A stretch of DNA of 63,490 nucleotides, filler included, from Hausera hauseri (Eukaryota), in assembly GCA_046269625.1 (NCBI GenBank). It is 11 parts of 11 records of this genome, joined end to end, with 100 filler letters (N's around TTAATTAATTAA, not from the genome) between each part and the next. Parts side by side here need not be neighbours in the genome. Positions count along the whole stretch, not along the records: positions 53,402 to 63,490 come from JBJURY010241071.1; 10 more parts are not named here. The stretch is one strand, 5' to 3'. The notes beneath the pieces are model-generated. The model was given only the letters and a program-made list of their open reading frames with translations, was not told the origin of the DNA and did not search any database. Every line of letters starts with the position of its first letter. Within the stretch, counting starts at the first letter, position 1. The position numbers were made by a program, and so were the translations under genes. This document shows positions 6,299 through 63,490 of this stretch, one piece after another.

Positions 6299-6337
6299 TA
6301 AACAAACTACATAAACATCATTGTCATCATTGTGAAT

Positions 6338-7755: not shown

Positions 7756-7762
7756 CAGACAA

Positions 7763-24218: not shown

Positions 24219-24581
24219 TCAAATAAATTTTATTATAAACCATAAACTAACAACACCAAAAACTAAAAAGTGTATATCAAGTAAATTCATTAGGGTAAAC
24301 TTCCCCAACTTCCACATTGGTGATTTAATACCGCGCAGTTCCTTATATCCTTTCAGCTTCATTGTCAAGTATCCTTTTACCCCTTCCATTAGTAAAACTG
24401 CTGTTTGTCCACTTGCACTCATAATTTTCACCATGTTGCCTTTAAGGAAAAGCGAGGATGTATCCCGAATATCATTGGACAACATCAAATCATTGTCCAC
24501 ATTCTTTATCGTTTCCTCCAATGCATCCAAGTCACTGTCACCGATTTTCTTTGCCAATAGGCCATATTTTACCTGCTTCAT
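24219..24581 (-). CDS. Hypothetical 120-aa protein converging on pPolB, probably Polinton-encoded
   Basis: Intact ATG-to-stop ORF with a hydrophobic C-terminus, on the same contig as pPolB. Confidence 0.4.
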   Translation of the reverse strand: MKQVKYGLLAKKIGDSDLDALEETIKNVDNDLMLSNDIRDTSSLFLKGNMVKIMSASGQTAVLLMEGVKGYLTMKLKGYKELRGIKSPMWKLGKFTLMNLLDIHFLVFGVVSLWFIIKFI

Positions 24582-24870
24582 TTTGATCTATGTTGATAAT
24601 TGTAATAGAATGGGGGTTCGCAGGAAGTGTAGATTGTACCCGTTGTACACTCTAGACTGTGTGAGGGAATACGGGCCGTACTTGGACTCACTGTTCCTTT
24701 CTAAATACATATTAAGGACAAAAAGTAAAAAGGAAATGGACTTACCGCAACCTGGCACAATTGAACTGCCGGTATTTTTGTTGTTGTTGCTGCTGCTGCT
24801 GCAGATACTGTTGTTTTGTTGTGCAGACATTTTAGAGACAAATTGAAATGAAAAGACGTACATATTGATG

Positions 24871-25036
24871 CCAAATTTGTTCAAATCGGTTTATTTCCGT
24901 TGTAAACAATGAACCAAATATGTACCAACTGGTGTGTCGTCATTGTAAACAATAGACAAATGGTCAATGAAGCCAGTGACCAAATTTGTTCCAACCGGTT
25001 TGCTTTCATTGTAAACAGTAGATAAAGGGTCAATAA
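24871..25036. repeat. Three imperfect direct repeats CCAAAT(T/A)TGT...TTGTAAACA
   Basis: Units begin at ~24871, 24914 and 24980. Confidence 0.7.
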
Positions 25037-25797
25037 CATCTGTATTAAAAANNNNNNNNNNNNNNNNNNNNNNNNNNNNNNNNNNNNNNNNNNNNTTAAT
25101 TAATTAANNNNNNNNNNNNNNNNNNNNNNNNNNNNNNNNNNNNNNNNNNNNCGTCTTTCCCCACTACCATTGTTGCATCTCGGTTTTGTAGATTTTCTAC
25201 GCCAACTCCACTGACGAAATGCTCACAGTTTCCTGCACGTCGTTTCCATGGTTTCCACACATACACACACAAATCGGGTTTACCTGCCGTCATTTGCTTA
25301 TGTTATAAATGAATCAAGATGGAGAGGAGAAGGAAATGAAGAAGAAGAGATAAAAGAAAGGACTAAAAAGTCAGTCATTTCATTGGACAACCGCAACAAT
25401 AACAAAATATCAACAACAACCTCTCACATCATCAATTTTCATCAATTTCAATTGGATATTTCTATCATCAACTGATGAATGATGACAAATGCCAATTGAT
25501 GAATTGCGAAATTTCTTCTTATACTGCTTTTGTAATGACTTTAATTTCCCATTCAAACTCAATCTTGTCCATCTCGATTTCAGACTTTTCACCGTTCTTC
25601 CCGATTTGGAAAAATACGTTTTGTAAATATTTTCAAATGACCGATTTTCCTGTCTGCCTTTATACAGATAAAGATCATCGGATAATGTCCATATTGTTCC
25701 GAAACCTGAAAAAAATTATCATCGTTAAAAATTGCAGCATTTTAATTTTGACAAAATTCTTCTTCGTTAAATAATACTTTTTCTTCATATTGGAAAT

Positions 25798-31550: not shown

Positions 31551-34500
31551 CAGATAAAGGCATAAAAACGCTAAGGATAGAAAATTTGGAGAAGTGTGGA
31601 TACCAGTAGACGAAAATATTCCACCGAAAACGGAGATAATAATTTATGCACAAGATCAGCAAGATGATAAACAACCAGTATATTTTGAACCCGAGGAAAC
31701 CCTAAATCCAAATATAATGCTCAGTATCGTATTGACAAGAGTACACTTCGGACGTGTGCCGACCACAATAGCGAATAATGCACCAACTTCCGTCAAGCTT
31801 CATGCTTATACCACTCTAGGAGACACGTATAGAGTGTCGTCAATAATTATCGAATAAAAACCTTATAAGTATGCTGAATTTTCACCTCATGTCGAAACTA
31901 ACTTCTATCCTGAATCTTATTGTTGATTCTATGATTTACTATGCCGCTACAAATCGGTTATCGCTAAGGACGAAGAAGACATAGGCAGAGCAAAAGCTTT
32001 GAATTTGACTATTCCACTCAAGAAAAAGCCAGATTAGAACGAAGAGATAGACTTGGAGGACCAGAAGATCCCAAAATGGTACCCTCTACCACGTTCACTT
32101 AGACCAGAAATAACGAAGGAAGTCAAAAGAATTCTAAAGGCCGATATAATCCGGCCCAGCTACAGATCTTGGTATTCGCCAATCCTCATGGTTAAAAAGA
32201 AAGGTACCACAAAACACCGATTTTGTATTGATTAGAGCCTTAAATAATCTTATGATGAAAGATTCTTTCCCATTACCATCGGTAAAAGAGGCTTTGGATA
32301 GGCTCTCAGGAGCAAAATGGTTTACCACCCTGGACTTACAATCCGGATATTGGCAAGTGGAGATTGAGGACGAAGCCCGTTATAAGACAGCATTCAAAAC
32401 TCACGATGGTGTTTACGAATTTTATATCATGCCGTTCGGTATTACTACCGGGCCAGCCATATTTACGAGAATGATGAACAAAATGTTAATGGGACTAGAT
32501 CACGCTTTTGCGTACTTAGATGACGTAATGATAGCGTAAAGACAGAAGAGGAACACTTAAAGGACATTGAACATACGCTAATGCGTTTAGAACAAGCCGG
32601 ACTGAAATTAAATCCAAAGAAATACAAATGGGCTCAAAATGCAGTATCCTACCTTGGCCATATAGTTGGAGAAGGAGGATCGAAACCGGATAAATCGTTA
32701 TTAAACAAAATATCGGATTGCATGGAACCATAAAACCAGAAAGAGCTAAGACACTGGTTAGGACTCTGCGGATATTACGCGACCTACGTACCGGATAATT
32801 CAAAAATTAATGCACCTTTATATCATCTGCTTAAAAATGGAATTAAATGGAAATGGACAGACGTCGAACAAAAAGCCTTCGATGAGATGAAGAAGATATT
32901 AACAAGTGAACCTGTTTTACGTTACCCAGACTTTAACTTACCATTTATAATCAAGACAGATGCCAGTAAAGAAGGCATTGGATATGAATTAGCACAGAAG
33001 AGAGGACAAAGAGTTAGAACACCCGATTGCATATGGAGGACGTTCTTTGAAGAAAGCCGAGAAAAATTATTCTGTTACCAAATTAGAAACCCTAGCTGTA
33101 AAAAAAGCACTTCGACATTTTAACGTTTACGTGTACGGGCAGAAAATTATAATTGTCACCGATCACAAGGCCGTTACGACCTTAAAAGGCCGGGCAAATA
33201 ACCCGACATGCAGACTAAATAAGTGGATCGAAGAAATCTCCAGATATAATATCGAATTCCAGTATAAGCCAGAAAATAAGCATGTAGATGCTGATGCGTT
33301 ATCAAGATTAAAGATTAAAACGAGCGCAATTACTGTAATGAAGAAAAGCCAACTCGAAAAGATAATAGATCGTCAACGCGCCTTGACAATGGATAAAGCG
33401 ATTAAAATTTCGACAGAGAGAAGGGATAAAGTCATCCAACAGGTTATAGAATTTGTTAAAAAGGATGTCATACCGAAGGGACGACAGTTAAAGAAACATT
33501 TATACAGACATGGATATAAATACTGCGTCCTAAATGATGAAAACGAAGGAGACATATTATATTACGAACGGAAAGGAAAGAAACTGATAGTTATCCCAAA
33601 AAGTTTACGAACCGAAGTGTTGATGTCAGAACATGACTCATACTTAGCCAGACACATGTCCTAAAAGAAAACACTAGAAAGAATAATGAAAAAATACTTT
33701 TGGCCTAGTATCTATATCGATGTAAAGAATTGGGTAAGCGCTTGTGAAATATGTGCAACTAAACAAAAGAAGTCGAAAATTTACATGGCCGAACTGAAAC
33801 CAATCAATGTGCCAGATAGGCCTATGCAAGCCATGTCAATGGATGTCGTAAAACCTCTTCCTACGACCCACAAGAACAATAAGTACATTTTGACTTGTAT
33901 TGATCAATTAACTCATTTTATCGAATTAGTAGCGCTAATTGATCAAAGAGCAGAAACTTTAGCAGAAGCAGTAGTAAGAAGAATCATTTGTCGATATGGA
34001 CCACCAGATCAAATATTAACGGATCGAGGAAGAAACTTTACCAGTAAACTTTTCGAGATTATCAAAATATTCGAAATCGAACGATTAACAACTACCGCAT
34101 ATTACCCTCAGTGTAATGGAATGGTTGAGCGAATAAATGCAACCGTTATACGAATACCATCAACAGTGGTAGCTAAACACCAAAAAGATTAAGACAAATT
34201 TCTTGAAGGGACTCAATTGGCTATCAATACCACACCACATCCTGCGACGGGATTTACACCATTTTTTATGATGTACGGACGTGAAGCTGTGTTGCCCACA
34301 GATTTAGGAATGACGCCATACGCAGCTAGTCTCGAAGATTTAGAACAGAACTTTGAAAAAGTATTGCAGACACGATTACAAAAATGTTGGGAAATCGCCA
34401 AGGAATTATCTCAAGAATACCAAGAACAATTTAAAATGCAATATGATAAGAAAGTGAAACCACATGATTTGGAACCCGGAAGCTGGGTTTATGTACATTA

Positions 34501-34700
34501 TCCAGTAGCCAAAAAGGCACCTCGTTGAAATTGACCCGCACTGGCAGAGAACCGTATGAAGTTACCCGAGTTACGCCAACCACGGTATATGTCAACAAAA
34601 ACGGAAAGGAAGAAGTTGTGTCAGTACAAAGAGCTGTCAAGACAGAAATACGGCCCAACAAACGTTATAATTTACGCCAACGTGAGGTAAAACTTCCTCA
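31551..34700 (+). mobile_element. pol: Ty3/Gypsy pol (RT-RNase H-integrase), frameshifted
   Basis: LDLQSGYWQV, KTAF, MPFG, YLDD; TDASKEGIG, TDHKA, ADALSR; H...H/C..C zinc finger; MDVVKPLP, TDRGRNF, NGMVERIN. Confidence 0.95.
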
Positions 34701-35775
34701 ATAATTGCTAGACCAATATCATACGTTCAGATAGTTTTGGCATTATCGTTGATTGCATCCTATATTCCAAGAATACAGACGCAATGGTGACATGATGAAT
34801 CTACGCTAAGAGATATATAGGGAATTCGGAAGTATGGATCAAAATCTGAAGCAACTAAAACAGAAAAGAAACCAACAGTTAAAAAAATTCAAAGACAGGA
34901 AGATACTAAATTGTTACAATCAATGACAATTCATTATTACTCGCCAAACGCAGTATGTGTCGGATTTAAGGCTTGGAGACCACACCACTATTTCGGAAGA
35001 TTTCAAATAGGTTTATATGGTGTAACAACAAAAGAAGCGAAGAATTGTGATTTTGAACCTGGAGAAAATATGCAGTGTCGCGACATAGATTTTGGACGTA
35101 CTTATAACCTTACCTATCGCCTGTACTTACCAGACTCAACCGAAGTTTATATTGAAGTAAAACCACGATCTCAATTAGTCATTCCTGCATGGAACAGACA
35201 CCATGGAGTAAAGCCCAGCGAAATGCTACGATCTACCAACCCGGATGTAAGACTATTAGATAAGAATATCCAGAGAATCTCTGTAAATAAGCAAAAACAA
35301 TGCATTCAAGTAGATACTCAAATAGGATTAACTCTTAGCCAAGAAATTAGTATCGTTTTCGAAGCGGTAAACGGAAAAACCCCGAAAATAAATTACTGTT
35401 CTGTACATACCGGTGTGCAACGCCCACGTTGTAAGTTACCAGTAAACCAAGAATTCAAAATAAAACTCGACTTATATGAAATAAGGCCGAATAAACCGAC
35501 CAAACATTTGCAGACTTACTATCCGAAAAATAGAATATGGAAAATCACAGTAGACATGCCTAATAAAAGGCCAACCACTCGAGTTAGTGCCATTACGATA
35601 CCCGTTACGTCAGGCAGTGTGCCTAAAAGAGAATTAGAGAGCATCCCTATTAAATATTCGGCATATCGATCTAAAATTGTGTTCCTTGTGGAAGAGAAGC
35701 AAAATTACGATATACACGTAAGTTGTCGAACAACACATGATAATCAAATTGTAACATTATTTAAAAATACTTATC
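34701..35775 (+). pseudogene. Post-integrase ORF: signal-peptide-like start plus tandem Cys-containing beta-rich (FN3-like) domains, truncated by contig end
   Basis: IVLALSLIASYI hydrophobic stretch in frame with the open frame from 34911. Pattern similarity to 55688-57084. Confidence 0.6.
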
Positions 35776-45459: not shown

Positions 45460-45603
45460 TTTACTGAACCTTGGCGAGATGATATTAATCCATCAGGTTA
45501 TACAGTACCCAGAGATGAAACAGAAAATCATTTTAAAGAAATGATGCATCGAAATAGACAAAATATACATAAAAATCAGCAAAATTCACAAACAATTTGT
45601 TAG
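45460..45603 (+). CDS. 3' end of an unknown ORF converging on viral unit A
   Basis: Open from the contig start: FTEPWRDDINPSGYTVPRDETENHFKEMMHRNRQ...TIC*. Confidence 0.35.
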   Translation, partial: FTEPWRDDINPSGYTVPRDETENHFKEMMHRNRQNIHKNQQNSQTIC

Positions 45604-46059
45604 TGTTAGAAATCATATACGCTAAAAATTTATTTTTATTTATATAAAAAATAAAATTTATTCTCGGGAAAAACAAGAGTCTCTGATAGCCCAGATCATA
45701 CTTTATAACAAATGCAGAAATTTCAGTTCGCACTCTGGGCACGGTGTGAGGGGTGAATATGGGAACGTACACGAATCCGTAAATTTAAAAATAAAAAGTC
45801 AAAAAATCTGTAACCATATTAGCACACAACAAAGAACAAAGAAACAAAGACAAATTTTAACACACAATATTATGATGATTTAGAAATACAACGAATATTA
45901 CAGAATTTGCGTGAAAATGTGTTATTTAAATAAATGTTTAGTTCAACTTTTTATCTTTTCCCTCTATTTATAACTTAATAAAAAATATAAAAACCAAATA
46001 AAAACGAAACAAAGAAATAATAAACAAAGACATTTTTATACATACTAAAATTTATTTTA

Positions 46060-46754
46060 CTACACATAGCTTTCCATAGGTTCTGTATCTGCATCGCTAA
46101 TCCCACAGCTATCGGCATCACTGCTGTCCTCTGCAAGTTTCAAGATAGGCTTGTAACCGTTAGGTGGGTCAGGCTCTGGCACCCGCTCCTCACCTAACGT
46201 ATACTCAACAGCGTTCAGGGCTACTCTCGGGAGTGGAGAGCCGGCTGGACGCTGAACTATTCTCGGATCGAGACACTTACCTAAAAATAATAAAATACAA
46301 AATAAAATAATTAAATACCCTGTTGCCGTTTACCTTTTAGAGCAAAACAAATCAAACAATCGTTTCCCCAATCATAGATCGGAAACGGATTGTGTGAACA
46401 CAAAATCTCTTGTCTGTGCAAATTGTCACAGATATCTTCAGCACTACGTCGAGGTGCGGAATACACATCACGCACAGGGTCACCATCGTCGTCGCTGGCA
46501 AATACTCGGAGAAGACTGCAGAGATGGATCGGATCCTTTATCGAATATACAGTTTGCATTTTCTCATACAGATGAAGAATTTGTTGCATCATGTGCAGGT
46601 TATGTATGCATAAACGGTTGACATGCTGGAGATCGGCTGTCTCCTCTGGTGGGATATTATAGCGGATTTCAACGTTACGAACAAGGTCGCACAAGCTGTC
46701 GATACTATACTGCAATTTAAGCAACTTCGAAAGGAATTCACCGTGTTCACCCAT
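46060..46754 (-). CDS. Viral accessory gene ORF2, copy A: two exons (46754-46319, 46280-46060), 38-nt GT-AG intron; Cys/His-rich
   Basis: Spliced product ...LCSHNPFPIYDWGNDCLICFALKGKRQQG|KCLDPRIVQRPAGSP...TEPMESYV* is colinear with copy B. Confidence 0.75.
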
Positions 46755-46847
46755 TAATAATAAAATAAGACTAGAACAACGAAATATTTATTCACTGTAC
46801 AATCTATTTTTAGCAACACAAATGAGCACCAATCAGATAAAAATTAA

Positions 46848-48370
46848 TCACAAAGTAATGTGGTCATCACGACCCCACGTGTCCTCAATATCGTCAAACG
46901 TAACATTAGCTGGTGCACTGTTGTACTCAGTAGGAACATTTCCAGTATTCAAATAATTAATTTGACTATCTCTACTAATCAACCCCGCCCGCCAAGCATC
47001 TCTTTCTGCAAACGGTATATGGCAGATTTCGCTACACATATGATATGGGCTTAAAATTTCACGATGATAAAGTGGTCTGTAATTTCTAATGTTATCATAA
47101 TTGATAGGAGTATTAAGATCATCATCGTCGTAACTAGGAGAATGAAACAATTCGTCCTGGGAATTTATAGATAAAGATTGATGAGGCGGGATAACTACAG
47201 GAATACCAGTTGGCAAACTACTAATAGGTAATGTGTCACTACTTTCCATAGGAATAACTTGAGGAGTGCTCTGCATCAATGGAGTACCAACGACTTCTAC
47301 TTGTGGTCGCACATATTCACTTGCAAGTTTTCTAAAATCAATTCTATTATCAATCAAAAACCTATCCCTACTTTCATCCGTTTGATACAACATGAAATCG
47401 CCGAACTCATAAAGTAAACAGCGTTTCATGCAGGCCTCTTTCTGACTTAAATCCATCCTTCGAGGCCAGAAGGAGGATTGCGAGTTGTATGTAAAGATTA
47501 CGGGGATACTCGAGGGAACGACAACACTTTTATAGAGTCCCCTAATACTTCGATTGTCATGTATATTATTGCACTGTACAATGCTTAAAAATATGTCAGG
47601 GCAAACTTCCGAAAAACCCACATCATCGAAAATTATTATGTCGTAGTTTGGAGACCACTCTGATGGGGTATCATGCAGGCTATGTAAAATCAACGGGTTC
47701 TTCCCGTGACTTAGGGCGAAACAAGTTTTCCCTATATTGCTCGAACCGAATAATAGGGCTGTATTAACTCCGTTCTCCAAGCGAAACTTAATGGGTGGAA
47801 TAGTAAATATGTATTGCGGATTTGTTTCTATCTTAGGCTTGAACTTATTTGCACAGTATGTCTGCAGTAATTTGTGCCGTGTAACAAACTCCGCACGGTC
47901 TCCCTCTTTCATTATGTTCATTGCTTCCGAGACCGTGGGAGCATCATCAAATAGCCTATACAAGGCTTTCCTACTGTTATTATCTTTGTGCAAATCTATG
48001 GGTGGAGTCCCTAGCTGCATCACGAATGCGTTGTTATTCTTCTCGTGATACTTGTAGACCGCAAAAACGTTACTGCGGAACGGGATGACGTAGAGAAAAT
48101 CAAACAATGTTTTGAACCTGTGTAACCTCATGGGGTTACGCATATAAAACAGATAATGAAGGTGGTGGAAGCCACTTGGTGATGTGTCTTCGACCACCTT
48201 GAGATAAAATTTTACAGACAACGAAATACGAATAAAATTAATCAATCATTACAAGATCATCACCATCGTTAATTTTTGTCACGGCCATAAAATGCCGAAA
48301 TGTCGCGCCTTCTGGTGGCTATACCAACTCCGAAATCTTATCGGGAAATCTCTGTTGTAAAGCATCAGTG
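46848..48370 (-). pseudogene. rep: CRESS-DNA-virus-type Rep (HUH endonuclease + SF3 helicase), copy A, 5'-truncated
   Basis: RCR motif II EDTSPSGFHHLHYL, motif III YKYHEK, Walker A GSSNIGKT, Walker B IIFDD, motif C FTYN. Stop and frameshift at 48240-48325; similarity to copy B ends at 48370. Confidence 0.9.
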
Positions 48371-49623
48371 ACAATGTAACGATTACAATACCAATTAACA
48401 TGACATTCAGTATTCAATTCCAAAATGATTTATACAAATGGAATGAATTAAAAACTCCATATTTCCAACCATACATATGGACAAGAGAAATAAATGATTT
48501 AATGACATATTATGAGTTTTGGAGGCCTAAACATATGAAAGTGAAATTTATGAATGCACAACCAACATATCAAACAGGCACAGTGGACTTTAAAGGAATA
48601 AATCCAGAATGCAGATTACAATTTTTCGTGGACTATAAAAATGTATTTTACAATTACGAAAACAGACCTAATACAGAAATAACAGGTCAAACAGCATTAC
48701 TTGCTTATTGGAATGAAGGATTATTAAAAAATGATAATTATTTATTAGGTTGGAGTACAAGTACAACAAATATTACAACACCAGCGTGGTGCCCAACACG
48801 TACATTACCAATATTAACAGATAATAGAGGAAATCAACCAACAGTTAGGAAATATTATGAACATTTACCATTTCAAAGTGGTGTAACAGAAATTATTGCT
48901 AATGAACCAGACTTATTTACATACGAATACACACCAACTCATGATTATTGGAAACAAACACATTTAAGTGCAATGTTATGGAATTACGTTAAAACTAATA
49001 ATGGAAAAGTCGATAATTCACAATTTGGAACATTAACAGATGATAAAATTCCTTGGATTGCAGACAGATTCGACTACTTACATACAGAAATAATCCAACC
49101 GAATTGGAATACATGTAGTAATTGGTTCAACATAGCTAAGGATGAAATTGTTAGTAAATGCCATTATGATATTAGATTAGATGATAAAACGTACAAAAAT
49201 TGGAAATTAAATTATCATTATGAAACTAGTAGTTTAGGAAAAACTTACGAATATTGGTGGAGGGATACTGATTATATACAAGAAGAAAAACCTATGCCGG
49301 GATTATACTTTAAAATTAGTCCACTTGCAGGAATAGATAACAATGCATGTGCACAAACATGTCAAATGAATGTAACAATAGATTATACATTTGAATTTAC
49401 AAGAAATCAAATAAATGAAATGAGAAGACAAGCTTATATAATGAGTGCGAAAGACACGCAAATACCACTTAAAAGGAAATACTATAAAGCTTGGTTTCCT
49501 GTGTGCCAACCAGTTACAACATTTATCTCTAAAAAGAATAATGAAGGTCACATTACAAGTATAAAAGAAGTATGGGATAAAAAGGACATGCTCAGTAACA
49601 TGTTCAGTTATTACAACGTGTAA
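48371..49623 (+). CDS. Parvovirus-type capsid protein (VP), 5'-truncated, otherwise open (407-aa ORF from 48400)
   Basis: TPYFQPYIWTREINDLMTYYEFWRPKHMKVKFMN...RLQFFVD and KPMPGLYFKISP...QMNVTIDYTFE parallel the parvoviral VP jelly-roll segments (..FRPK.....N..Q.F.D; PPP.I.IK; V.I.WE). Confidence 0.75.
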
Positions 49624-49625
49624 AA

Positions 49626-50243
49626 ATGAATTACAAACTTTTTGAAGACGAAGCGAGAAAAAATGTACATTTCATTATCTCCACTTGTGTTTATGACTTA
49701 CCTGACGATTGTCCAATTGATATGTTACACAATAAATCCAATCTTCCAAAACTTATCAAAAGCATTATTTCAAGCAACGGTGGCAAAGTTAATACAATAC
49801 AATTACTTGGTCCCAGAAATTGCGGCAAATCATTCTTCATCAATTTACTAACAGCTAATAAAAATGTTGGTGCCATTCATAACATGTTTTCGCGCAGTAA
49901 TTTTTGGTGTCAAGATTTAATTGGGAAAGATATTTATGTTGGAGAAGAAATAATGCTTGATCAATTTAATGCTTAATATTTTCTAATGTTAATGGAAGGC
50001 AGTCAATTGACTCGTGCAGAAAATAAATTTCAACATAGTTCGAAGTTACCGAAGAAACCTATGATTATTGCAAGTAACGAGTGTCCGTTTCGTCATGTTA
50101 GTAGTATGTATGATGCGTTCATTGTCCGAAGATTATTGATTACTTTTATAAAACCAATTCAATTCAGTATGCCTATCAATTATGATGATATAGAAGTGCA
50201 GAGGATTTTACAGAGTTTGCGGGATAATGTTTTATTTAAATAA
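49626..50243 (+). pseudogene. Stand-alone parvovirus NS1-type SF3 helicase/ATPase (~205 codons, one premature stop at 49974-49976)
   Basis: KVNTIQLLGPRNCGKS (Walker A), NFWCQD, YVGEE (Walker B), LMEG...ENK, PMIIASN (motif C), AFIVRR. Own ATG 2 nt after the VP stop; no HUH domain; its stop overlaps AATAAA. Confidence 0.85.
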
Positions 50244-50553
50244 ATTTTTTTACTACTTTGCTATGTTTTGGTTTTTTTTTTTTCGTTTTTGGGTGTCCGG
50301 AGCAGTGAAACTATGGGGCAGTGTAGTTAGTGGGGTTATTCTTTTAAAGAATCATTCTAATTCAAACCTAGCTAGTGTGAACGAGCTTACGCAGTGGTCT
50401 GGGCACGGAGTGAGGGTGTAGATGGGCACGTACTCGAATCCGCAACTTTGGTTACAAAAATTCATAAAAAATCTGTTACCATGGAAACGTAAACAAAGAC
50501 ATACGAAACAAAGAACAAAAAACACAAAGACAATTTTAAGTTTGAAATTTTTA

Positions 50554-51214
50554 TTAGACAAAGGAAACCATAGGCTCAGTGTCATCAGTCTCGTTTTCAG
50601 CTTCTTCATCAATTACATCAGAAACCACATACGATCGCGTGGAACACACAGGCCCAGCAACCACCTCATAGCGGTCAACATCAAGGGCTATCCGGGGGCG
50701 TGGAGAGCCGACTGGACGCTGTACTATTTGGGGGTCCAACCACTTTCCTAAAAATAATAAAATAAAAATCGAAAAATAAAATACCTTGTTCCCTCTTACC
50801 TCTCAAGGCAAAACAAATTAAACAGTCATTCCCCCAATCGTAAATAGGAAAGGGGTTATGACTACATAAAATTTCTTGGCGATAGAGACTGTCGCAGATA
50901 TCTTCCGCCACTCGAGGATTACACGAATACACGTCACAAACACCACCATCAGATTCGTCAGCAACACGTAATAGAGAACATAAATGCAAAGGATCCTCAA
51001 TTTGAAATTTTCCTTGCATTTTTTCATATAAAACGAGAATATCGTGCATGAGATTCAAATTATGCAAACACAAACGCGATATGTGTTGCATATCTGTGAT
51101 CTCTTCAGGAGGAAGGTTATACCGTATCTCGACATTCCTCACATGATCACACAAACTGTCAATCGAATATTGTAATTTCAACAATTTGGATAAAAATTCA
51201 GAATTTATAGACAT
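50554..51214 (-). CDS. Viral accessory gene ORF2, copy B: two exons (51214-50785, 50747-50554), 37-nt GT-AG intron
   Basis: ...DCLICFALRGKREQG|KWLDPQIVQRPVGSP...TEPMVSFV*. Intron position is the same as in copy A. Confidence 0.75.
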
Positions 51215-51310
51215 AATGAAATACTAAGTCAAAACAACAAAACTCAGAACTATTTATTACAACTGTACACACATAAAAATAAACACACATAATGAGCATC
51301 CAATAGCAAT

Positions 51311-52933
51311 TTACATAGTATGATGATCATCTTGTCCCCAATCAAAATCTATGTCCGTATAACGCACATATGCAGGTGCAGTATCAACTTCAATTGGAGT
51401 TGCGTCTGTATTGAGATAGTCCACTGGTGCAGGATCAATATAGCACCTTTCCGAGCACACATGAAAAGGTGACAGTACTTGGTTGTGAAAAGTTGGACGA
51501 TAATTTACTACATTAGCTAAAACAGGTGGGCTAACATCATCGAACGACGGTAAATGGAAAAGCTCGTCATCTCGGTAATCCCCACCAACATTAACACTTA
51601 ACGACTGATTATTTGGGATAACTACAGGAATACCACTAGGTAAACTATCTACAACAGGAATAGGAACAGAAATTACAGGGGGCACAACATACTGATCTGC
51701 AAGTCTACGAAAATCTACCTTATTCTCCGTTAAAAATCTATCACGACTCTCGCCCGTCCTGTACAGCATGAAATCTCCGAACTCATGTAAGAGGCAACGT
51801 TTCAGACACGCCTCCTTCTGGGATAAGTCCATCCTTCGAGGCCAAAAGGATGACTGCGAGTTGTACGTAAATATAACTGGGACAGACGACGGGACAACTA
51901 CGGATTTGTACAGGCCTCTTATTGATCGGTTTTCATGAACATGATTGCATTGGACTATTGCAAGAAATATATCGGGACAAACGTCGCTAAACCCTACGTC
52001 GTCGAATATAATTAAATCATATGAGGACGACCACTCTGCAGGTGTGTCGTGTAAACTGTGTAATATTAAAGGGTTCTTGCCGTAGGAGAGAGCATAGCAG
52101 GTTTTGCCTATGTTGCTGCTCCCGAACAACAAGGCAGTATTAACACCCTGATCTAACCTAAAATTAATAGGTGGTATTGTGAAAATATAATTAGTATTAA
52201 CAATTATATTTGGCTTAAATTTTTATGCGCAATAGCTTTGTAATAACTTATGCCGAGTCACGAACTCCGCTCGGTCTCCTTCTTTCATAATATTCATGGC
52301 CTCCGAGACCGAGGGAGCGTCGTCAAATAATCTGTATAGGGCTTTTCTACTATTGTTATCCCTATTAATGTCTATGGGGGGATTACCGAGCTGCATACAA
52401 AACGTTGAAGAATTTACATTTTTATCATGATATTTATATACTGCATAAATATCGCTACGAAAAGGTATAACGTACAAAAAATTGAACAAAGTCTTAAAAC
52501 AATGCAACCGCATCGGATTTCGCATGTAAAATAAAAAGTGAAGGTGGTGGAAACCAGATGGAGAAGTATCCTCCACCACCTTCAGATAAAACTTATAAAG
52601 CAACGACAAGCGAATATAATTACTCATAAGCATGGAAATGTCAATATTATCGTCATATTTCAGGACGGCCATATAATGCCGGAATGTTGCACCTTCTGGT
52701 GGCTGTATTAATTCTTCAATCTTATCCGGAAATCTGGTCTGCAAAGCATGCGTGTAATCATCATTTGAAGGAAACAGGCGAGTATAAACACCATTTCTGG
52801 CATTATGCACTGTGAAATTTTCTCGATACCCCTTTGGAAAAAAAATATTAATATTATTAATAATAAAATAAAAAAATACTTGTTGGTTGCGTTCTTCACG
52901 GCTCATTATCTGACTCTGGGACGATGACGACAT
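51311..52933 (-). pseudogene. rep: CRESS-type Rep, copy B, full length; 1-nt frameshift at ~52225; putative 48-nt intron 52832-52879
   Basis: HHLHFL, YKYHDK, GSSNIGKT, IIFDD, FTYN. Restoring one base joins ORFs 52223-52933 and 51311-52132 colinearly with copy A. Confidence 0.9.
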
Positions 52934-53084
52934 GTAGCAGAAATATGAGACAGTGTATAAATTATTACGAATTTATACAATATCTCATATATTGCATAAC
53001 ACATCATAATACACTGATAAATTATGACGAATGAATAATTGTCCTTTGTATTTAAATATATTTGAAAATCATTCTACTCCTTTT

Positions 53085-53151
53085 TGAGAATGAGCAACCA
53101 ATAATATTAGCTACTATATATAGCTTAATTATTATTGGTTGCTCATTCTCA
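53085..53151. promoter_or_regulatory. Perfect 22-bp inverted repeat (hairpin) upstream of Rep, with a CCAAT in each arm and a central TATATA
   Basis: TGAGAATGAGCAACCAATAATA (53085-53106) pairs with 53130-53151. Inner AGCTA/TAGCT stem. A second hairpin lies at ~53205-53243. Confidence 0.8.
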
Positions 53152-53401
53152 TTTACACATATTCTTTTCTTATGTTTCTAAAAAAAGTATATAGTAGTGC
53201 AGATATTATTTACTATCTACTTACAATAGTAAGTAGTAAATAATTAATAAAAAATTATTATTTACATCGGGTGCATTTTTGATACGGTGAAACAAAGCTA
53301 TNNNNNNNNNNNNNNNNNNNNNNNNNNNNNNNNNNNNNNNNNNNNTTAATTAATTAANNNNNNNNNNNNNNNNNNNNNNNNNNNNNNNNNNNNNNNNNNN
53401 N

Positions 53402-55687
53402 AGCCAAAGACAGCATTCTCCATCGATGAAGGGTTATGGGAGTTTAACAGAATGCCATTCGGATTGAAGAATGGGCCGTCAACATTTCAGAGAGGGACAG
53501 AACTCCTACTGTTAGGCGTCCCGCATGCCATGGTATATATTGACGACGTAATAATAGCGTCACCAAACTTTGAACAACATTTAAAGAACCTACAGAATCT
53601 CTTTGATAGATGCGAAATAATGGGCCTAAAGGTGAATCCAAAAATGTTCATTTGCTCAAGCTGAAGTAGATTTCCTGGGACACCGAGTGGACAGACATAG
53701 CGTCAGACCTCAAGATAAATTATTGGGAAAAATAAGAGACTTTCCAAAACCAAGTACATTTAAATAACTACGTCGGTTCCTAGGTCTGGCAAATTATTAC
53801 CGAAGATTTATAAAGAACTTCAGTCGGATTGCGAAGCCTTTATATGAACTATGAAGAGAAGATCTAGAAACGTTACTATTGACAAGTGAATGCCAAAAAG
53901 CTTTTGAATATTTAAAGGATAGACTGTTAACAGCTCTAATATTGATGTATCCTGATATGATTAAGCCATTCATCTTGGCAACAGACGCAAGCGATTATGG
54001 AATAGGAGCAGTGTTGTCCCAAAAAGGCAAAGATGGAAAAGAAAACCCAGTGGCCTACGCCTCAAGAAAGCTCAACAAACATCAAAAGAAATATGCAGTG
54101 ATTGAAAAAGAACTATTGGCAGTAATATTTGCCTTGGAGGTATCTTTGCCATATATTAGCCAAAATAAACCTCTCTTAATCTATACGGACCATAGACTGC
54201 TTCAATGGCTAAAGCAGCATGAGAATCCAAATAGTAGATTGCTACGATGGGCTCTAAAGTTACAGCCTTATACTCTGAATTTCCAATATAAACCTGGATC
54301 GCGAAACGCAAATGCGGATTACTTATCCAGAATGCCCAACAGACCAGAAACAAAGAAAGCAGTAGTGGCAGCAGTATGGAGCATGGACGGATCTGTAGAG
54401 AAAATAAGGGCAAATCAAAATAAAAACATGGAAATAAGAGCCATCAGGAAGTACATGGAAAACAAAACATTACCGACTGGCAAAGAACCAGCCCGTCACC
54501 TAGCCTGATTCAGTGAAGCTTACGAAGAAAAAAGGATTCCTATACTTTATTCATCAAAACGAACCTACCTTAGTAATTCCAAAGAAAAACAGAGCAGTTT
54601 TGTTAACCCAATACCATGACGGATTACTTGGTGGACACCAATCAGCAAGTAAGACGCTTAATAAATTGAAACAAAAATATTTCTGGCCAACGATAATGAA
54701 AGATGTACAGGAATGGTGCGACAGTTGTAAATTATGTGCTACCCGGAAGAACACGGGATCAAAATACAAAGCACCTCTCAAAGTATGGGACAATACCCCA
54801 GCGCCATTTGAGTTTAATGTAGATGGACTTAACAGGACCATTACCGTTAACACGGAATGGAAATAGATATATTTTAGTCTTTATTCACTATTTTACTCGG
54901 TGGGTTGTTGCCTTAACAATGGCTGATATGAAAGCAGATACAATCCCTGAGAAATTCGTAGAGAACATAGTATTTAATTATGAAGCCCCGAGAATTCTCT
55001 TAACTGACCAAGCATCGAATTTAACCGGAACCATAATGCAATACATATACGATATTTTGAAGACGTTGAATCTACAATCCACACCCGGACATCCAGAAAA
55101 TAATGGGATGGTCGAAAGGTATATTGGAGACTTAAAAGGGAAATTGCAGACGGTGGTAAATACTAGACAGGACGATTGGAATGAATATATTAATGCGTGT
55201 GTTTTTGTAAATTGGACATCGGTCCATGAAGCTACTAAAGAAACACCCTTCTACTTGATGCATTTAAGGGACGCGAGACTACCAATAGATTTGGATTTTA
55301 ACGTGAAACCCACCTCACATGTAATGGAGGTAAAAGAATACAAACAGTTAATGCAGGAACGCCTCCAATTAGCATATAAAACAATTGGAGTAATCAAAAA
55401 CACTATAAATTAAAATATAAGAAGTATTATTATAAGAAGACTAAACAGCCAATAATAAAAAGGGTAAGACATCTAAGTTGGATAGACCATATAAGGGACC
55501 ATATGAAGTAGAAAAAGTGGAACTACCAAACATTTGTTTGAAGAAAAATAATACTTCCTTTAAAGTCCTCATCAATAAATGTAAACCCGCTGCTAAAGAG
55601 ATTGAAGTAAGAAAAAGCGAAAAAGAGCTAGTACAAAGTATTAGTGAGAAAGTAATCGAAGTGGACTCAACAAGTAGACTTGGCTAG
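53402..55687 (+). mobile_element. pol: Ty3/Gypsy pol (RT-RNase H-integrase), frameshifted
   Basis: KTAF, MPFGLKNGPSTFQR, VYIDD; TDASDYGIGAVL, EKELLAV, TDH; H..GGH/C..C; DLTGPLP, TDQASN, NGMVER. Confidence 0.95.
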
Positions 55688-57084
55688 ATAAAAAACTGTC
55701 TACTATTAATAATCATTTTATTATTCCCTGGAGTGCTAGAACAAATGACTAATCAGGAAATTGAACAGGCTAAGATAAGACACGCAACAGCTATAAAAGA
55801 TATGTTAATCAAAAGTTTACAATACTGTATAACGTATTCAAGAAAAGGTCAGAAAAACATGATTTGGAGCACACCTAAGCAAATGCCCCCAGAATATTAA
55901 ATAGGTATACAAGTTATACCCTGGAATGCTAATAGAAGACATCCCAACGATTGACAATTTGACTGTTTACTCCATCCAGAAATTAATGAAACAATATGTG
56001 TAATGGGAAACTCGGGTGTCCACAATATATATCTTACACTTGTTAAGAAAATAAGAGATTATTATAAGAGTCAATACATCAAACTTTACAAATCAATAAA
56101 AATTCCTACAAGACACCAAATGAACGAAACTTTATTAGATGAAATAATACTTAACCAATTAATCGCAAGGTCAATAGGATTTAAGAGCGGAAGAAGTTGT
56201 ATTGAAATCATAACGATGATAGAGTTAGAATAAATATGTTGGATAACTATAGTGATAAAAGAAACCACTACCCAGACAACAACAAAATGTAGAATTACAG
56301 TTGAACACCAACAAGTTTGTTGTAATGTGACACGAGAAAAAATATATAGTATGAACTATACTTTATCCCGAAAAAAATACGGTAAGCTATTAAATAGCTT
56401 AAAACGAGGAGGCCAGCAATGTATATAAGGTATAAAAATCAAAAAGAGTATGATGAAATAAATAAGGAAATAAAACAAGGGGTCACGACACTGGCTGTGC
56501 ACTCTTCGGCTGATAGGAAGGAGATGACAGTTTTTATTAAATCCTATGCTTCTTATTACCGTCAAAAACGTTCTATATGGGATAATGTAACAATTATAGC
56601 ATCCCCTACCGCATTAATTATTTCTATAAAACCAGATCGCGATTTTGTGAAAGTAAAATTCAGTTGTAAGAAACGAGGTGCAGTGGTAGCAAAAGGAGTC
56701 ATAACTCCCGATGATCTGGTAGTACCATGCGCGGCTTTAGACCCCGCTACAAGATACACGGTCATCTTACAGTTATTGGATGACAATGATAATATAACAT
56801 CCACTAAGGTAATATCAGCAGTTACAAAGAAAAACAATAAAATGGGATTTTCATATAAGGTGAATACAGTTAGTTATAAGATAACGAACAAACCCTCACG
56901 AGCGATATATAAACATTCTCGTTGAGAGATGATGTTGATTGAGTCATTAGTTCCAGTAGCGTTTATAGTTATGATAGGAATATTAATTAAAATAATACGG
57001 TTACGATGCAAGAGTAGAAGGAGCTGGGTGCGAATCAATATGCTTGATCTAACAAATCCGTTAGATACGGACAACCCCAGCTGA
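55688..57084 (+). pseudogene. Post-integrase type-I membrane protein ORF: signal peptide, three beta-rich domains (last FN3-like), RQKR site, TM helix
   Basis: CLLLIIILLFPGVL; RQKR; LDPATRYTVILQ; LVPVAFIVMIGILIKII followed by RLRCKSRR. Broken by stops and one frameshift. Confidence 0.65.
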
Positions 57085-57090
57085 CAATTA

Positions 57091-58430
57091 ATGGGAAGTA
57101 CTACAACTGGTGTAGCCCTAAAGTCAGAGATAACCACACGTCATCCGGTTAACTCCTTCTGTAATTTTTATTTAAATAAAACCACAACGATTACCCAAGT
57201 TATTTATATGATAACCGTTGTGTTATATGTAAGTAGTACATCTATATCATCATTGACTATATTCTTTGCAGTACAGCCACTACCTTCCATCAAATTCAAA
57301 CAGTCAGTCGTTCCAAACATTGGCATAGTAATGCCAAAAATCATGTTATAAACGCCAACCCGGCAAATCAGTATTACGTTGTGCACAATGATTATCTAAT
57401 CAGTCTCAATTATCCTCAAACTCAACAAATCCCCAATAATTTAGAAGGATACAGTATGGCCAACCGTTCTCTCGATCTCCCACAATTAACGAAAGCTACA
57501 TCTTTCTTCTTAACAGATATCCTAATATTTCCTGAACGTTTCCATTCAGCAAATTTATTTTGCATCACAGACCAATTCCAAATAAAAACAACAGATAAGA
57601 AAACGTCAATAAAAGGTGACCTGATTAACCTGGATGCCAAACATAGTCTTGCATTTGACCACTTGTTTCCTCAGAACAACTTTTTCAAATTGAGATCTAG
57701 TACAAACCGGATAATCTTTGCTATCGAAGTAATTAAGAATGAAAAATTTTACCCCAGTCTGCCACCAGGAAAGTGTTTCAATTTACCCGATGGAAGGTAG
57801 TGTTAAGGATTGTGTTAAATATAAGAATACATCTTTCTGTCGAATAGACAAAATAATGGATACTGACATAGTCATAGCTGCCGTCAACCTGGCCTATGAC
57901 CAATGGAATCAGCTGCAACCTATTGAAGCATCAATTATGAATCTACATGGTGACACTTTATTCCATGGAATAATAACCCAAGGCAACGAATAAACAACTT
58001 TGACACACATATAACAGGCCTCTCCGAAGGAAACATTAATAAACAACTGGATCCCATAGACTTTTAACGAAAAGTAACTGAAATTATCACTGATAAAGTG
58101 TTGATCGGAGCCGATGTCATCGAGATGGTCGTGAACCATTTCAAATACCCCTCAGGCGGATAGCCGGAGTTCGCGATATACTATATCACGAAGAGGTTAT
58201 CCCCAAATATCAATTGTCAATCGGGTCCTTTAAAGAACTAACCCGTAAGTTCTACGAAACGAAGGGTTTCCCTCTTCGCAGCACTGCTCTAGTACAGTGC
58301 TACCAAGCTATATACCAACAGCTTAAATGGTCAGACGAATTGATAACGCAAAGTACGGCTACCGACGGGTGGCGAACAGCACCAACCACGTCACTGTGGT
58401 CGAAAAACAAAGTTTCAAATGGATGAAACT
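57091..58430 (+). pseudogene. Further decayed coding region of unknown function inside the LTR element
   Basis: Overlapping ORF fragments 57091-57351, 57381-57800, 57739-57993 and 58214-58426. Hydrophobic stretch VIYMITVVLYV. Confidence 0.4.
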
Positions 58431-58561
58431 ATAATAGTCGATGAGGAAGTCTATGAACCAGAAGCCATATGATACAAATCTCGCACTACAGACAAATTCA
58501 TTCACATGCCCCTATCGTTCGATCAATAAATTGGAACAATTTCTTCGACCCGCCATCGAAT

Positions 58562-59240
58562 TGTGTGAAAGTTGACATTTCAACGTAGTGAAAAACATTT
58601 ACGTGAATATTTGACATTTAACACGTACATTTTTAAACGTGACTTGACATTTGGAGAAAAACATTTTAAATGTATATTGCTCTTTAAGGCCGCAGCGACA
58701 TTATTATGTGTAGCATGTAAATTATTTCATTGATTAGTGTATTCACCTGGAATATAGTGTGTAATGTAGAATACTATATAAACTAGTGAAATTTTACGAC
58801 AAGACAGAAAGTTTTGTGAACGTCTTTTGATTCTAACTTTACGCCTTAACGTGAGTATTATTGTTTTGTCACTGTGATTACTATTGCGTATTGATTATAT
58901 GTATTATTGAAATTCGTTATTTGTTGTTATCGAAGTATATATGTAATCAAGTAACATAAATAACTAATAAATAACGTGGCAACTTTGGTCGACCAGGTCA
59001 AACCTACCTGACGACCGCCAAAGTAATAATAAATAACAATATAGAAAAGTAAACAGTAGCAAGTAATTATTAAGTAACGTCACGAACCCCCATACACATT
59101 ACCTACTGACAGATAGGTAAAGTTTGGATATTATTTCTCTGCAAGTTCATCTCGCGTCTAAATAAAAGTGAATTTATTCTCCTCATTAATTAACCCTTAT
59201 TATTGAAGTCTCTCCCAACGTAATTAGTGAGGAGTGAACA
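58562..59240 (+). repeat. Putative LTR (left boundary uncertain, 58562 or ~58707)
   Basis: Non-coding; ACTATATAAAC at ~58773 as in the contig-1 LTR; AATAAA at 59161; ends ...GAACA 3 nt before the PBS. Confidence 0.55.
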
Positions 59241-59243
59241 AAC

Positions 59244-59262
59244 TGGTGTTGTGACCCGGGAT
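59244..59262 (+). promoter_or_regulatory. Primer-binding site, tRNA-His-like (TGGTGTTGTGACCCGGGAT)
   Basis: Resembles the complement of the tRNA-His 3' end (TGGTGCCGTGAC...). Lies between the LTR end and gag. Confidence 0.65.
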
Positions 59263-59387
59263 CTTATTTAAGGACCTTTACATTATAAATAGCAAAATTA
59301 CGACAAGAAAAGGAATGTTATACCAACAAGGAATAAAACGAACCGTACGGATTAGAATATTTACAAAATTTAAGTGAAGAAGAATCA

Positions 59388-60530
59388 ATGGCAAACAATA
59401 ATATAGAACAGGTGATTCAGCCGAAGGCTGACCTCACCCTACCGATGAAGAAATTTTCGGGAAAAGAAGACAATATGAAGTATATTCCAGAAGTTTTGGA
59501 TGGGGCGATAAACAAAGAGTAGAGGGATTACCTCTCCACCTAAAAGGAACGGCTCTCATGAATATATTTTCAAATGCCGGATGACGACAAGAAGGACTGA
59601 AAAGGAATTAAAGAAAAACTGCCCCAGAAGTTTTTAATAGATCCCTCGGGAAAGGGGAGAATTGAAGAGTTTATAAGAAGGAGGCAACGGAAAGACGAAA
59701 CAGTCCAAGACTTTGTCTATGCATTGGAAAAGCTAGCGGCTAGAGCACATCCCGACGTTATAATAAAAAACAATGCATTGTTAGCTCAATTCCAGTATGG
59801 AATGGAAGAAAGGTTGAGGACAATAATCTCTCAAGCAGACCCAGCTACATTTCAAGAAGCAATAAGGAAGGCACGAAAAGCCGAACGAGATGCGGAACTA
59901 TGTAGGTGGAATAAGTCCAAAAGTAGAAATAATAACTACGATAAAAGAAGAAACAATGGTACACAATAGTATCAACCATACGAAAAGAATAGAAGCCCTT
60001 CACAAACGTCAGCTACAGAAGCTGAGTCAGATGTAGAAAAGAAAGTAAGATTCAATTTGAGGAACGATGGAGAAAAGACAATTTATAAAAAGAAATCCAA
60101 AAAGGATGGAAGAGCGTTACCCAACAAAGACTCCGAAGGAATATTGAACTGTTTTAACTGTAATAAATACGGACATATAGCGAAATCATGTAGATCACGT
60201 AGAGGAGATCTCTCGAAATCAAGTAATAAGAATAAACAACAAAAGAAAGATTACACATCAGCCACGTCAGATGAATCGTCCGATAAAGAATATGAAACGG
60301 AGGATAGTGTTAGGGAACATGAAGTTAAGAGAAAGAATAAGAAAAAAGAAAGTGTTAATTATATAAACTATACACTATGTCAAAGCATGAAGAAACAATT
60401 AGAAATGGAGTTGAAAGATTACAAGACACATCAGCAAAGACTAAAAGAAAGTAGTATTTATATGATAGGGGATCAACCGGAGAAAAAGGTATCCCATCAA
60501 AGAAGAAGAAAGGTAATAAAAAATAATTGA
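59388..60530 (+). pseudogene. gag: Ty3/Gypsy gag, degraded
   Basis: KKFSGKED, LPLHLKGTA, RRQRKDETVQDFVYALEKLA, PATFQEAI, CFNCNKYGHIAKSC. Confidence 0.9.
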
Positions 60531-60639: not shown

Positions 60640-61785
60640 GAAGCTCAAACGAAACCAATATTTGATGAAACTATATTAGAACAAGTAATAAAGAACTCAG
60701 GTGTAGATCTAGACGAAGAAGACGATATTATCCAAGCAGTAATGACTATTGACCCCAATAATATATGTGATGTAGATAAAACGACTACTACGATACTGAA
60801 GGTAATTACCAATAAAGTGCCAGTAGAAAGGATAAACGAAATATTACCTCAGTTGGTTTTATTGGCCCAAGATATTAGCACGGTGAGAGAGATAACAAGG
60901 ACCGTATTGGCCAAGGCCGCTGAAGATGAGAAAGGAAGAAATGAAACTATGAGAGAAACAGTAAGAGAAGGGAACTAAGACATGAGATTTATACGAATGA
61001 ACGAAATAGACGACATACAAGCTTTACGAGAAAAGATAGAAGAGTTGGAACCATTCTATCAAGGAAGTACTTATGGATTAAATTATAACGGAAGAACGCT
61101 ATATAGGTATGATAGGTTATTGAGAATTGGATGTAGAAAAGAGAACTATAACTCAATATTTATAACCGAGATACATCCAGAAGCGAGAGCGCAGGCAACG
61201 ATGGATAATATCCTAAGCAAAATGGAACCATAGGAAGTAGAAGGATCGCCCGTAGGCGATATTCAAGATGTTACGGTCCAAACAGAAGCTAAAAGAACAG
61301 GTAGACCAAAAGGAACAAAGATTAGTGATATTTGCGACAAGAAAGACAAAAACGAATAAATAGTAAAACGTTTATTATTGGAAGGAACAAACGTTACACC
61401 TGAATCTGTGGCCTTAGATCCCTTATTATAAACCGTACTGGCCAAATTACATACATCATTCGCCTCCTTTCACATGCAAGTAATAATTCCAGATGGGCTA
61501 TTCCAAACCTTACGTAATAATATATTACGGATTATTAGGCAATTTTATGAGAATCTAGACGAAGAACGGATAAACGAATTACATGAATTAGATATTTTGG
61601 AAAAGATGTTCGCAACGGGTATTACACGAGAGAAAGCGCAAACTGCCATATCCTACCTTCTATATAAAATAATAGTAATCAACCATGAAACTTAAAATTT
61701 AGAACAGATCGAACGAAATATAAAGACAGCTGTCAAAATTTTAAAAGATACGTTTGGAAATTGGATCCATTGTAGAGGTGGTTGG
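60640..61785 (+). pseudogene. Unknown helical coding region between gag and the env-like ORF
   Basis: ORFs starting at 60742, 60982, 61474, 61786 and 62365 are all in one frame and separated only by stops. Confidence 0.55.
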
Positions 61786-61890: not shown

Positions 61891-62664
61891 ATGTCAATAA
61901 TGGAGATCCTACAAATCCTCTTAATAACGTCATTAATAATGCCAAAAGCCGTAGGTACAGTCGCATACCACTGCTCCAAGCCTAGCGAAGGACAGAAGTA
62001 CTCTTTAGTTGATTTTGAGAAATGTCCAAAAGCCGACCCAAAACAGTTAACAACAACAAGTGGCCTCGCATATTGGGTTTATCAGGAATCTGAATTTATA
62101 AAGGTGAAAGTTAGGGAATGTTACGTCAAGAGATCATTTTTCCTGTTTCATTGTGCCTATTATTCTGGAAATTTGGCCATCATCGAGCCCACAACACCTT
62201 TTGAACCAATAATAATATCCCGAGCGGAATGTCAGGATGTCTTTAAGATTGGTACAGTAACTATTCACGATGCACCCATACTTGCCGTTAGAAATAGAAT
62301 AAAGTACACCAGAATCTTCAGAGCAGGAAGAATAGATAAAACAATGGAAGGCACATGTAAATGAGTGGATTACGACGTTGGAGGTACCATCGCATCTAGA
62401 ACGGTAGCAATTGAGGATTTCCAGGTTCAATTGAAAGAATACGAAGTACTATTTGACTCACAAACGAAATTAATGACAACATTGTTGAAGGAAGGAAAGT
62501 TCAACAAGACAGTAAGTAAAACGGCTGAGAAGGACACAGCTACGTATAAAGAAGGAACAAAGGAAGTTAAGATGACGGAAGTAGCTACTATTGTGTATTC
62601 AGAAAACCTAGAGGAAATGATGCGATTTAAAATCACTGGAGTGGTAAGTAAATGTACAGTATGA
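61891..62664 (+). pseudogene. env: Env-like glycoprotein (class III, gB/chuvirus-type), N-terminal part with internal deletions
   Basis: Signal-like MEILQILLITSLIMPKAVG, then AYHC...YSLVDFEKC...VYQ...VRECYV...FHCAY...ISRAEC...G.CK. Confidence 0.7.
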
Positions 62665-62905: not shown

Positions 62906-63409
62906 GTGCAACAGATGAAACAAAGTTTTGACGAAAATCTGACACCTTATAAATGTGAACCTACATATAAAACGGATGATAAAATCGAACGGCAATCACC
63001 CATAAGACCAGAGATAGAGATAGAGGTGAATGGATATCCATTGATGGTTCCGTTAGATACTGGATCCACGACAACAATAATGGGAAGGAGCCAAATGACA
63101 AAAAATTTAAAAAGGAAGCTAAGAAGACCGACAACTACGTTAATAAATGTAGGAGCATTCGGTACAGAAGAGGAAATTAAAATGGTCATAAATGCCGAGA
63201 TTAAGATTGGTAAACAAATTTTAAAGCACATAATAAGAATAGCAGACAACCTGACTAATGAAATCCTAATTGGGTGCGATATATTAAGTCAATTGGAAAA
63301 CACTTACATAGATGTGAGAACAGGTCAACTTAAGACTTTCATTGAAGATCAAAATGGAGGGATGGTTTCATTAACAAAAGATATCATATCCCACCACGAT
63401 CCAAGATAG
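62906..63409 (+). pseudogene. Retropepsin (aspartic protease), start of pol
   Basis: IEVNGYPLMVPLDTGS...ILIGCDIL. Confidence 0.92.
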
Positions 63410-63490
63410 TGGTGTCTGGAACAGTAAAAAGTAAATCATTACCTGAGGTAATTCACTTTGAACCATTCCCACAAGTTATGGAAAAATACG

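Follow-up and report, generated by a model that had tools for sequence, protein, structure and literature searches.

The closest described systems include Ty3/gypsy elements with env near gag. Burro/GYPSM1 are giant planarian elements with the order gag, BCL2-like, env, protease, dUTPase-like spacer, and RT (PMC6431247). Their env lies in frame after gag and is related to mononegavirus fusion glycoproteins; the available text mentions accessory ORFs and has 0 occurrences of "fibronectin" (PMC6431247). Errantiviruses in GAG-ENV-POL order with an HSV/gB-type env have been described from Nematoda, Bryozoa, and Platyhelminthes, and their authors place other ORF arrangements outside the search (PMC13524379). 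An arrangement with the fusogen before pol is already known. In bdelloid rotifers, LTR elements carry non-env ORF3s after pol, which include small TM proteins and DEDDy exonucleases, and a dUTPase between protease and RT (PMC5408684). Troyka elements have no env and no GPF/Y motif, and their knuckle is CX2CX8-10HX4C (PMC12440569). The literature searched, which included the available text of PMC13524379, PMC6431247, PMC12440569, and PMC6338049, contained no FN3 membrane-protein ORF in an LTR element; the primary Burro description and the nematode gag-env-pol work lay outside this scope. Here, we describe an FN3-like ORF after pol that represents a real and probably undescribed family of accessory genes in elements of a known kind.

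We analyzed a 63,490-nucleotide stretch of Hausera hauseri DNA (the window), which consists of 11 contigs joined via N-linkers. The GC content is about 37 to 38% overall. Contig 7 (31551 to 35775) and contig 11 (53402 to 63490) hold decayed Ty3/gypsy elements with RT, RNase H, and integrase domains identified by Pfam. The two pol genes are 29 to 49% identical in aligned stretches, and therefore the two elements are distinct. This agrees with the initial annotation, in which the two FN3-like ORFs were said to come after different pol genes. Contig 7 has no sequence 5' of the protease-RT spacer. The coordinates of the features are listed in Table 1.

Table 1. Features of contigs 7 and 11, in window coordinates
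Feature	Position	Strand	Basis or remark
Contig-7 Ty3/gypsy pol, broken; RT, RNase H, integrase	32240..34704	+	Pfam RVT_1, RT_RNaseH, Integrase_H2C2, rve
Contig-7 FN3-like copy: signal-like stretch, domains 1 and 2, S/T-rich linker, start of domain 3	34701..35775	+	
Contig-11 upstream pol, broken; partial RT, RNase H, integrase, GPY-type end	53402..55687	+	Pfam; GPY-type end by eye
Contig-11 FN3-like type I membrane protein gene (predicted), broken	55688..57084	+	Same frame as pol C terminus
Signal-like hydrophobic stretch, contig 11	55697..55729	+	Mean hydropathy 3.29, 11 residues; hydropathy only
Domain 1, contig 11, putative beta-sandwich, approximate bounds	55820..56107	+	Domain alignment; pLDDT <35 over residues 41-150
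Domain 2, contig 11, putative FN3/Ig-like beta-sandwich with the family's cysteine pattern	56162..56401	+	pLDDT ~60-77
RQKR furin-type motif, just 5' of domain 3, contig 11	56560..56571	+	
Domain 3, contig 11; LDPATRYTV at 56737-56763	56572..56835	+	Cysteine-pair spacing as in P0005 and P0006; sequence alignment
Predicted TM helix, then cysteine and basic cluster, contig 11	56932..57021	+	Hydropathy 2.56 (19-residue segment); P0005 and P0006 share the flank
Open frame, 187 aa, after FN3-like gene	57237..57800	+	No Pfam match, no usable Atlas match
Broken frame	57790..58470	+	Translation; Pfam and PDB sequence searches without support for exonuclease
Non-coding gap, ~920 bp, candidate shared LTR and leader	58470..59387	+	AATAAA at 58966; TGG primer-site candidate at 58977
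gag, downstream segment, one CCHC knuckle	59388..60350	+	Pfam zf-CCHC E 8e-5, Ty3_capsid E 0.003; tblastn to P0008
Bcl-2-like domain, in frame with env	61585..61785	+	PF00452 E 9e-4; 20.2 bits against a cut-off of 31.4
gB-like (Monjiviricetes-type) fusion glycoprotein, N-terminal part only	61903..62655	+	PF24664 E 1.2e-17; P0008 alignment stops at 62655
Aspartic protease and start of protease-RT spacer	63014..63490	+	Pfam E 1e-7

Other contigs of the window carry further decayed sequence. In contig 4, a protein kinase fragment (19810 to 20448, minus strand) with a Pfam E value of 1e-13 lies upstream of a gypsy pol. This pol is decayed, and a stretch of it recurs in inverted orientation (14266 to 14489 versus 15503 to 15725, 79%). 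Contig 10 (45460 to 53301) contains an internal duplication, at about 46316 to 48370 and 50780 to 52750, with 71% DNA identity in the longest match. Its minus-strand frame has motifs that by eye resemble HUH and Walker A motifs and suggest a Rep of the rolling-circle type; Pfam gave no match. In contig 3, there are diverged tandem arrays at about 10300 to 11530 and 12200 to 13230; in one of them, the repeat period is about 105 bp. The decayed frames of contigs 2 and 5 (4154 to 8860 and 20549 to 25051) look polinton-like by eye, with what we take to be integrase, capsid, and protein-primed polymerase regions.

In contig 11, one stop codon (55685 to 55687) separates the pol C terminus from the FN3-like leader without a change of frame, and there is no ATG 5' of the leader. 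The gene is broken by four in-frame stops (at 55898, 55952, 56231, and 56923) and by one frame change, between 56398 and 56425. Four stops in 464 codons correspond to 0.86 per 100 codons; the values for the neighbors are 0.29 in pol and 0.92 in the env segment. The gene decays at about the same rate as the adjoining element genes. In contig 7, the homology to an intact database protein, P0005, starts at the pol stop codon (34702 to 34704), where there is likewise no ATG. The contig-7 copy has two stops, at 34788 and 34818. From 34821 to 35774 its frame has no stops, versus 16 to 26 in each of the five other frames. It ends with the contig, before the end of domain 3, and its own TM helix is therefore absent from the sequence. 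Both ORFs are real coding relics: each is a broken gene that begins where pol ends. Because the gene has no introns, begins at the stop codon of pol in either contig, and has a decay rate like that of its neighbors, we assign it to the element.

Translation of the contig-11 gene showed the features that had been ascribed to it: a hydrophobic stretch near the N terminus, the RQKR and LDPATRYTV motifs, and a hydrophobic segment of 19 residues with a basic flank, the membrane features being judged from hydropathy only. Each of the motifs quoted for the two ORFs was found in the translations. We rejected the furin site as a family feature. An RQKR-type motif is present in one of four sequences (the contig-11 copy; not the contig-7 copy, P0005, or P0006), and an R-x-K/R-R motif arises in 712 of 5000 shuffles of the contig-11 ectodomain. 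Heparan binding as read from basic charge was also rejected: the ectodomain net charge in the window copies is +6 to +7 per 100 residues, which is the level of RT/RNase H.

An exhaustive search with the contig-7 ORF gave three matches among 1.84 billion representatives: P0005, P0006, and P0007. P0005 is intact (479 aa) and 32% identical to the contig-7 ORF (E = 1e-42). It carries the entire plan, including LSPQTEYTI, the TM helix, and the Cys-plus-basic tail. P0006 (189 aa) is the C-terminal part only. P0007 was dropped as a repeat-protein artifact, with eight stretches all matching query residues 2 to 59. The juxtamembrane cysteine and basic cluster are found in all three sequences that have tails (contig-11 copy, P0005, and P0006). 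After this cluster, the tails of P0005 and P0006 have a C-terminal YxxI motif (tail end YxxIT), which is not in the contig-11 tail and which we presume to be a possible sorting signal.

Other searches returned little. Word-based homologue searches kept none of 238 candidates with the contig-7 ORF and one of 4493 with the family profile, which was P0005 itself. None of 79 pattern matches in a GTDB scan was confirmed. Pfam found nothing above cut-off in the FN3-like proteins, and a PDB profile search gave only two ribosomal-protein matches (E > 1). Among the Atlas leads for P0005, PF00041 occurs in four of the ten listed clusters, and every score is <0.9. The family is sparse in databases, with two credible relatives among the 1.84 billion representatives, and standard annotation would therefore miss it.

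Direct comparison of the two ORFs gave results at chance level. BLASTP returned E values of 0.90 and 5.5, and the pairwise scores were reached by 135 of 2000 shuffles with BLOSUM62 and by 28 of 2000 with BLOSUM45. The likeness by pattern claimed in the initial annotation stood only when P0005 was used as a bridge. P0005 aligned with the contig-11 read-through collinearly over about 285 residues with a score of 92, and none of 1000 global or 1000 local shuffles reached this score. A profile built from the contig-7 family alone scored 23.6 bits against the contig-11 read-through without composition correction (0 of 300 shuffles). With the correction, the whole read-through scored 0.0 bits and was matched by 274 of 2000 shuffles. 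Among 1020 translated window chunks, the contig-11 ORF pieces were the best non-self matches of the profile, at 15.3, 8.6, and 6.0 bits versus 5.3 for the best unrelated chunk without correction, and at 10.1 and 7.0 bits versus 4.9 with it.

HMM alignment of the two proteins, which had been named as a check, went against the claim: the hhalign probability was about 3%, with family domain 1 paired to contig-11 domain 2. The hhalign score exceeded those of 30 shuffles, the reversed sequence, and eight unrelated window proteins. The P0005 domains are internal repeats (domain 1 versus domain 2, z about 9), which may explain the ambiguity in domain pairing. A MAFFT alignment of the cut domains agreed with the proposed three-domain registers. 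The contig-7 family and the contig-11 protein also have in common a cysteine pattern and the linker between domains 1 and 2. On these sequence comparisons, the two ORFs are probably homologous.

An AlphaFold2 model of P0005, built from three sequences, was of modest confidence (pLDDT 55.9, pTM 0.28). In this prediction, a signal and a helix (residues 32 to 74) are followed by three sandwiches of seven strands each, with a disordered linker rich in S/T, a TM helix, and a basic tail. The seven-strand sandwich topology in this model is that of an FN3-like fold. In a Foldseek search of the PDB, FN3 arrays were on top (best E = 3e-10; 338 matches at E ≤ 0.001), with low global TM-scores because the domain orientation in the model is unfixed. 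By VIA-align, domain 3 matched IFNAR2 D2 with a Z of 9.5 and an rmsd of 2.2 over 76 residues. Among 50 BFVD matches, the named rows were phage tail and FN3/Ig-type proteins, none of them a fusion protein; many rows were unnamed. Fold prediction, the other named check, thus pointed to FN3 arrays and not to an F-type env. It bears out the view that the retroelement carries an FN3-like single-pass membrane protein, and the P0005 model and its Foldseek matches showed no sign of a fusogen.

The contig-11 model covers the first half only and was aligned with contig-7-family rows, so it is not independent. Its domain 2 sandwich matched a Tie2 FN3 domain (VIA Z 8.3, rmsd 2.8 over 88 residues), which is near the tool's "common" level and tied with a non-FN3 beta-galactosidase sandwich. 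Foldseek gave no match to the half-model at E ≤ 0.001. The model lends weak support to an FN3-like fold in the contig-11 protein. The PF00041 gathering score was missed: one of five proteins reached 13 bits against a cut-off of 25, and the best E value was 0.12 (P0006), with none for the window proteins. Therefore, we use the term FN3-like fold and do not call the protein a Pfam fn3 member. The conserved cysteines of the family presumably occupy the place of the canonical FN3 strand-B tryptophan. The predicted tandem seven-strand sandwiches are like those of FN3-array membrane proteins (fibronectin, contactins, gp130, Tie2, and IFNAR2) and of phage and large-DNA-virus FN3 proteins. The family has no sequence-level match to those proteins. 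For the rotifer ORF3s, which are shorter or enzymatic, no FN3 array is reported in the available text (PMC5408684).

Two classes of envelope protein were rejected. An F-type (class I) errantivirus env is contradicted by the non-conserved furin site, by the lack of any env family in Pfam at E ≤ 10, and by the region after the contig-11 RQKR, whose counterpart in the alignment is domain 3 of P0005, an all-beta domain and not a set of long heptad helices. Domain III of class II fusogens has an FN3-like topology (PMC9094657); a remnant of it is disfavored, since there are three such domains in tandem and no elongated domain II.

The FN3-like gene is followed in contig 11 by accessory frames and then by a second segment. 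A short frame with a hydrophobic middle (57091 to 57351, plus strand) overlaps the 187-aa frame. The next, broken frame looks by eye like a DEDD/REX-type exonuclease, which we take as a likeness only, with a non-canonical first acidic motif. The window contains no second copy of the gap that follows, and the LTR pair and LTR ends were not found; there is also no tRNA in the window. In the downstream segment, zf-CCHC, PF24664, and protease follow in this order, i.e., a gB-type env lies between gag and protease. The env has no membrane anchor 3' of 62655. The sole relative kept of 4860 candidates, P0008 (41% identity), encodes in one ORF gag, a knuckle, weak ubiquitin-like and Bcl-2-like matches, and PF24664, with env from about residue 793. 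Its Bcl-2-like domain (residues 651 to 748, E = 0.055, below cut-off) is about 40% conserved with the window copy. The only PDB sequence match of the window copy was BOK (E = 0.35), and a two-sequence profile of the Bcl-2-like domain detected no Bcl-2 chains (E ≤ 1). The protease-RT spacer, which is dUTPase-like in Burro, gave no Pfam or PDB match. Separately, contig 1 has a gag with a CCHC knuckle (1537 to 3895, plus strand) that is 25% identical to contig-11 gag and P0008 and is followed by a long, unassigned, helical-looking region.

The downstream order of gag, putative Bcl-2-like domain, env, protease, and spacer is like that of Burro/GYPSM1. As in Burro, env comes in frame after gag and is related to mononegavirus fusion glycoproteins. 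Unlike Burro, the element is far smaller, with one knuckle as against two or three, and P0008 has no Pfam matches of the MATH, BIR, and ankyrin kinds carried by the Burro polyprotein of about 4,900 aa. The segment is Burro-like in order and is not assigned to Burro. It is also like the gB-type GAG-ENV-POL errantiviruses, as far as their published text describes them, in having a gB-type env between the gag and pol of a Ty3/gypsy element (PMC13524379). Troyka is ruled out by the canonical knuckle, the GPY-type end, and the env.

We propose that the FN3-like protein is a type I surface glycoprotein with an accessory role, which binds a partner on the host surface and serves in docking, with fusion left to the gB-like protein, and we give this reading a probability of roughly 40%. 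The product would have a signal, an N-terminal helix, three tandem FN3-like sandwiches, a stalk, a TM helix, and a Cys-plus-basic tail. Its translation would be coupled to pol by stop/start coupling, read-through, or splicing. The protein would reach the cell surface, where the distal domains may bind a host surface molecule, and this binding would dock particles or producer cells onto target cells. The separately encoded gB-like class III protein would then carry out fusion. A partner for gB is not known to be needed, because the available text of PMC13524379 describes no second membrane protein for the gB-type elements; "fibronectin" and "immunoglobulin" each occur 0 times in its main text.

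A somewhat less favored explanation is that the protein modulates the host outside the entry machinery, as a decoy or mimic of a host FN3 receptor of the cytokine-receptor or adhesion type that alters immune or cell-contact signaling. The best single-domain matches include the cytokine receptors IFNAR2, IL-20R, IL-12Rb1, and gp130. However, adhesion proteins are tied with them (Z within 1), so the fold indicates no ligand. The short tail has no recognizable signaling domain, and the FN3-like gene is the first in a run of accessory frames. The downstream segment adds a Bcl-2-like domain, and Burro elements are described as rich in apoptosis and ubiquitin regulators (PMC6431247). On the other side, no host paralogue was found by the sequence searches, whether among the 1.84 billion representatives, with the family profile, or with the PDB profile. 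Given the host-regulator cargo of such elements, the decoy or signaling-mimic reading is nearly as likely as docking.

It is improbable that the FN3-TM protein replaces env in elements without gB, the gB segment of contig 11 being an unrelated adjoining insertion. LTR elements with a non-env ORF3 after pol have been described (PMC5408684), the two halves of contig 11 do not overlap in sequence, and, as noted, no LTR ends were found. However, the gB-like gene lies downstream of the FN3-like gene on the same strand, beyond one gap of about 920 bp, and the last accessory frame is about 500 bp from the primer-site candidate. Contig 11 begins inside RT and ends in the protease-RT spacer, two points that we estimate to lie about 660 bp from each other on the scale of contig 7. 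The spacer resembles the start of contig 7, a match exceeded by 10 of 2000 shuffles. In our reading, contig 11 represents a single family in tandem or permuted form, and for this reason we favor, on the basis of one contig, the FN3-like gene and the downstream gB segment as parts of one element family.

That two different FN3 membrane proteins were captured independently, the ORFs being alike by fold only, is quite improbable: the direct comparison at chance level, the hhalign result, and domain-to-domain best scores that are not strictly collinear would fit it, but the collinear alignment via P0005 lies above all shuffles, and domain count, gene position, linker, and cysteine pattern are common to both.

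Taken at its fullest, the docking proposal would describe a two-part entry system in an invertebrate Ty3/gypsy lineage, in which a class III gB-like fusogen is cut from a gag polyprotein and a separate FN3-array attachment protein is encoded 3' of pol; Bcl-2-like and other accessory genes would accompany them. We consider this full system unlikely. In herpesviruses, receptor binding and fusion are split between proteins. If the system is real, a herpesvirus-like split would have evolved independently in a retroelement.

In surveys of retrotransposons that carry an envelope, each element is credited with one env gene. The additional membrane-protein gene described here, which is old and probably shared, suggests that some of these elements have extra surface machinery for the recognition or manipulation of host cells, as in complex viruses. 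According to the available text of PMC13524379, the choice of target cell is open for most elements. The FN3-like protein is a concrete candidate for making this choice in gB-type elements.
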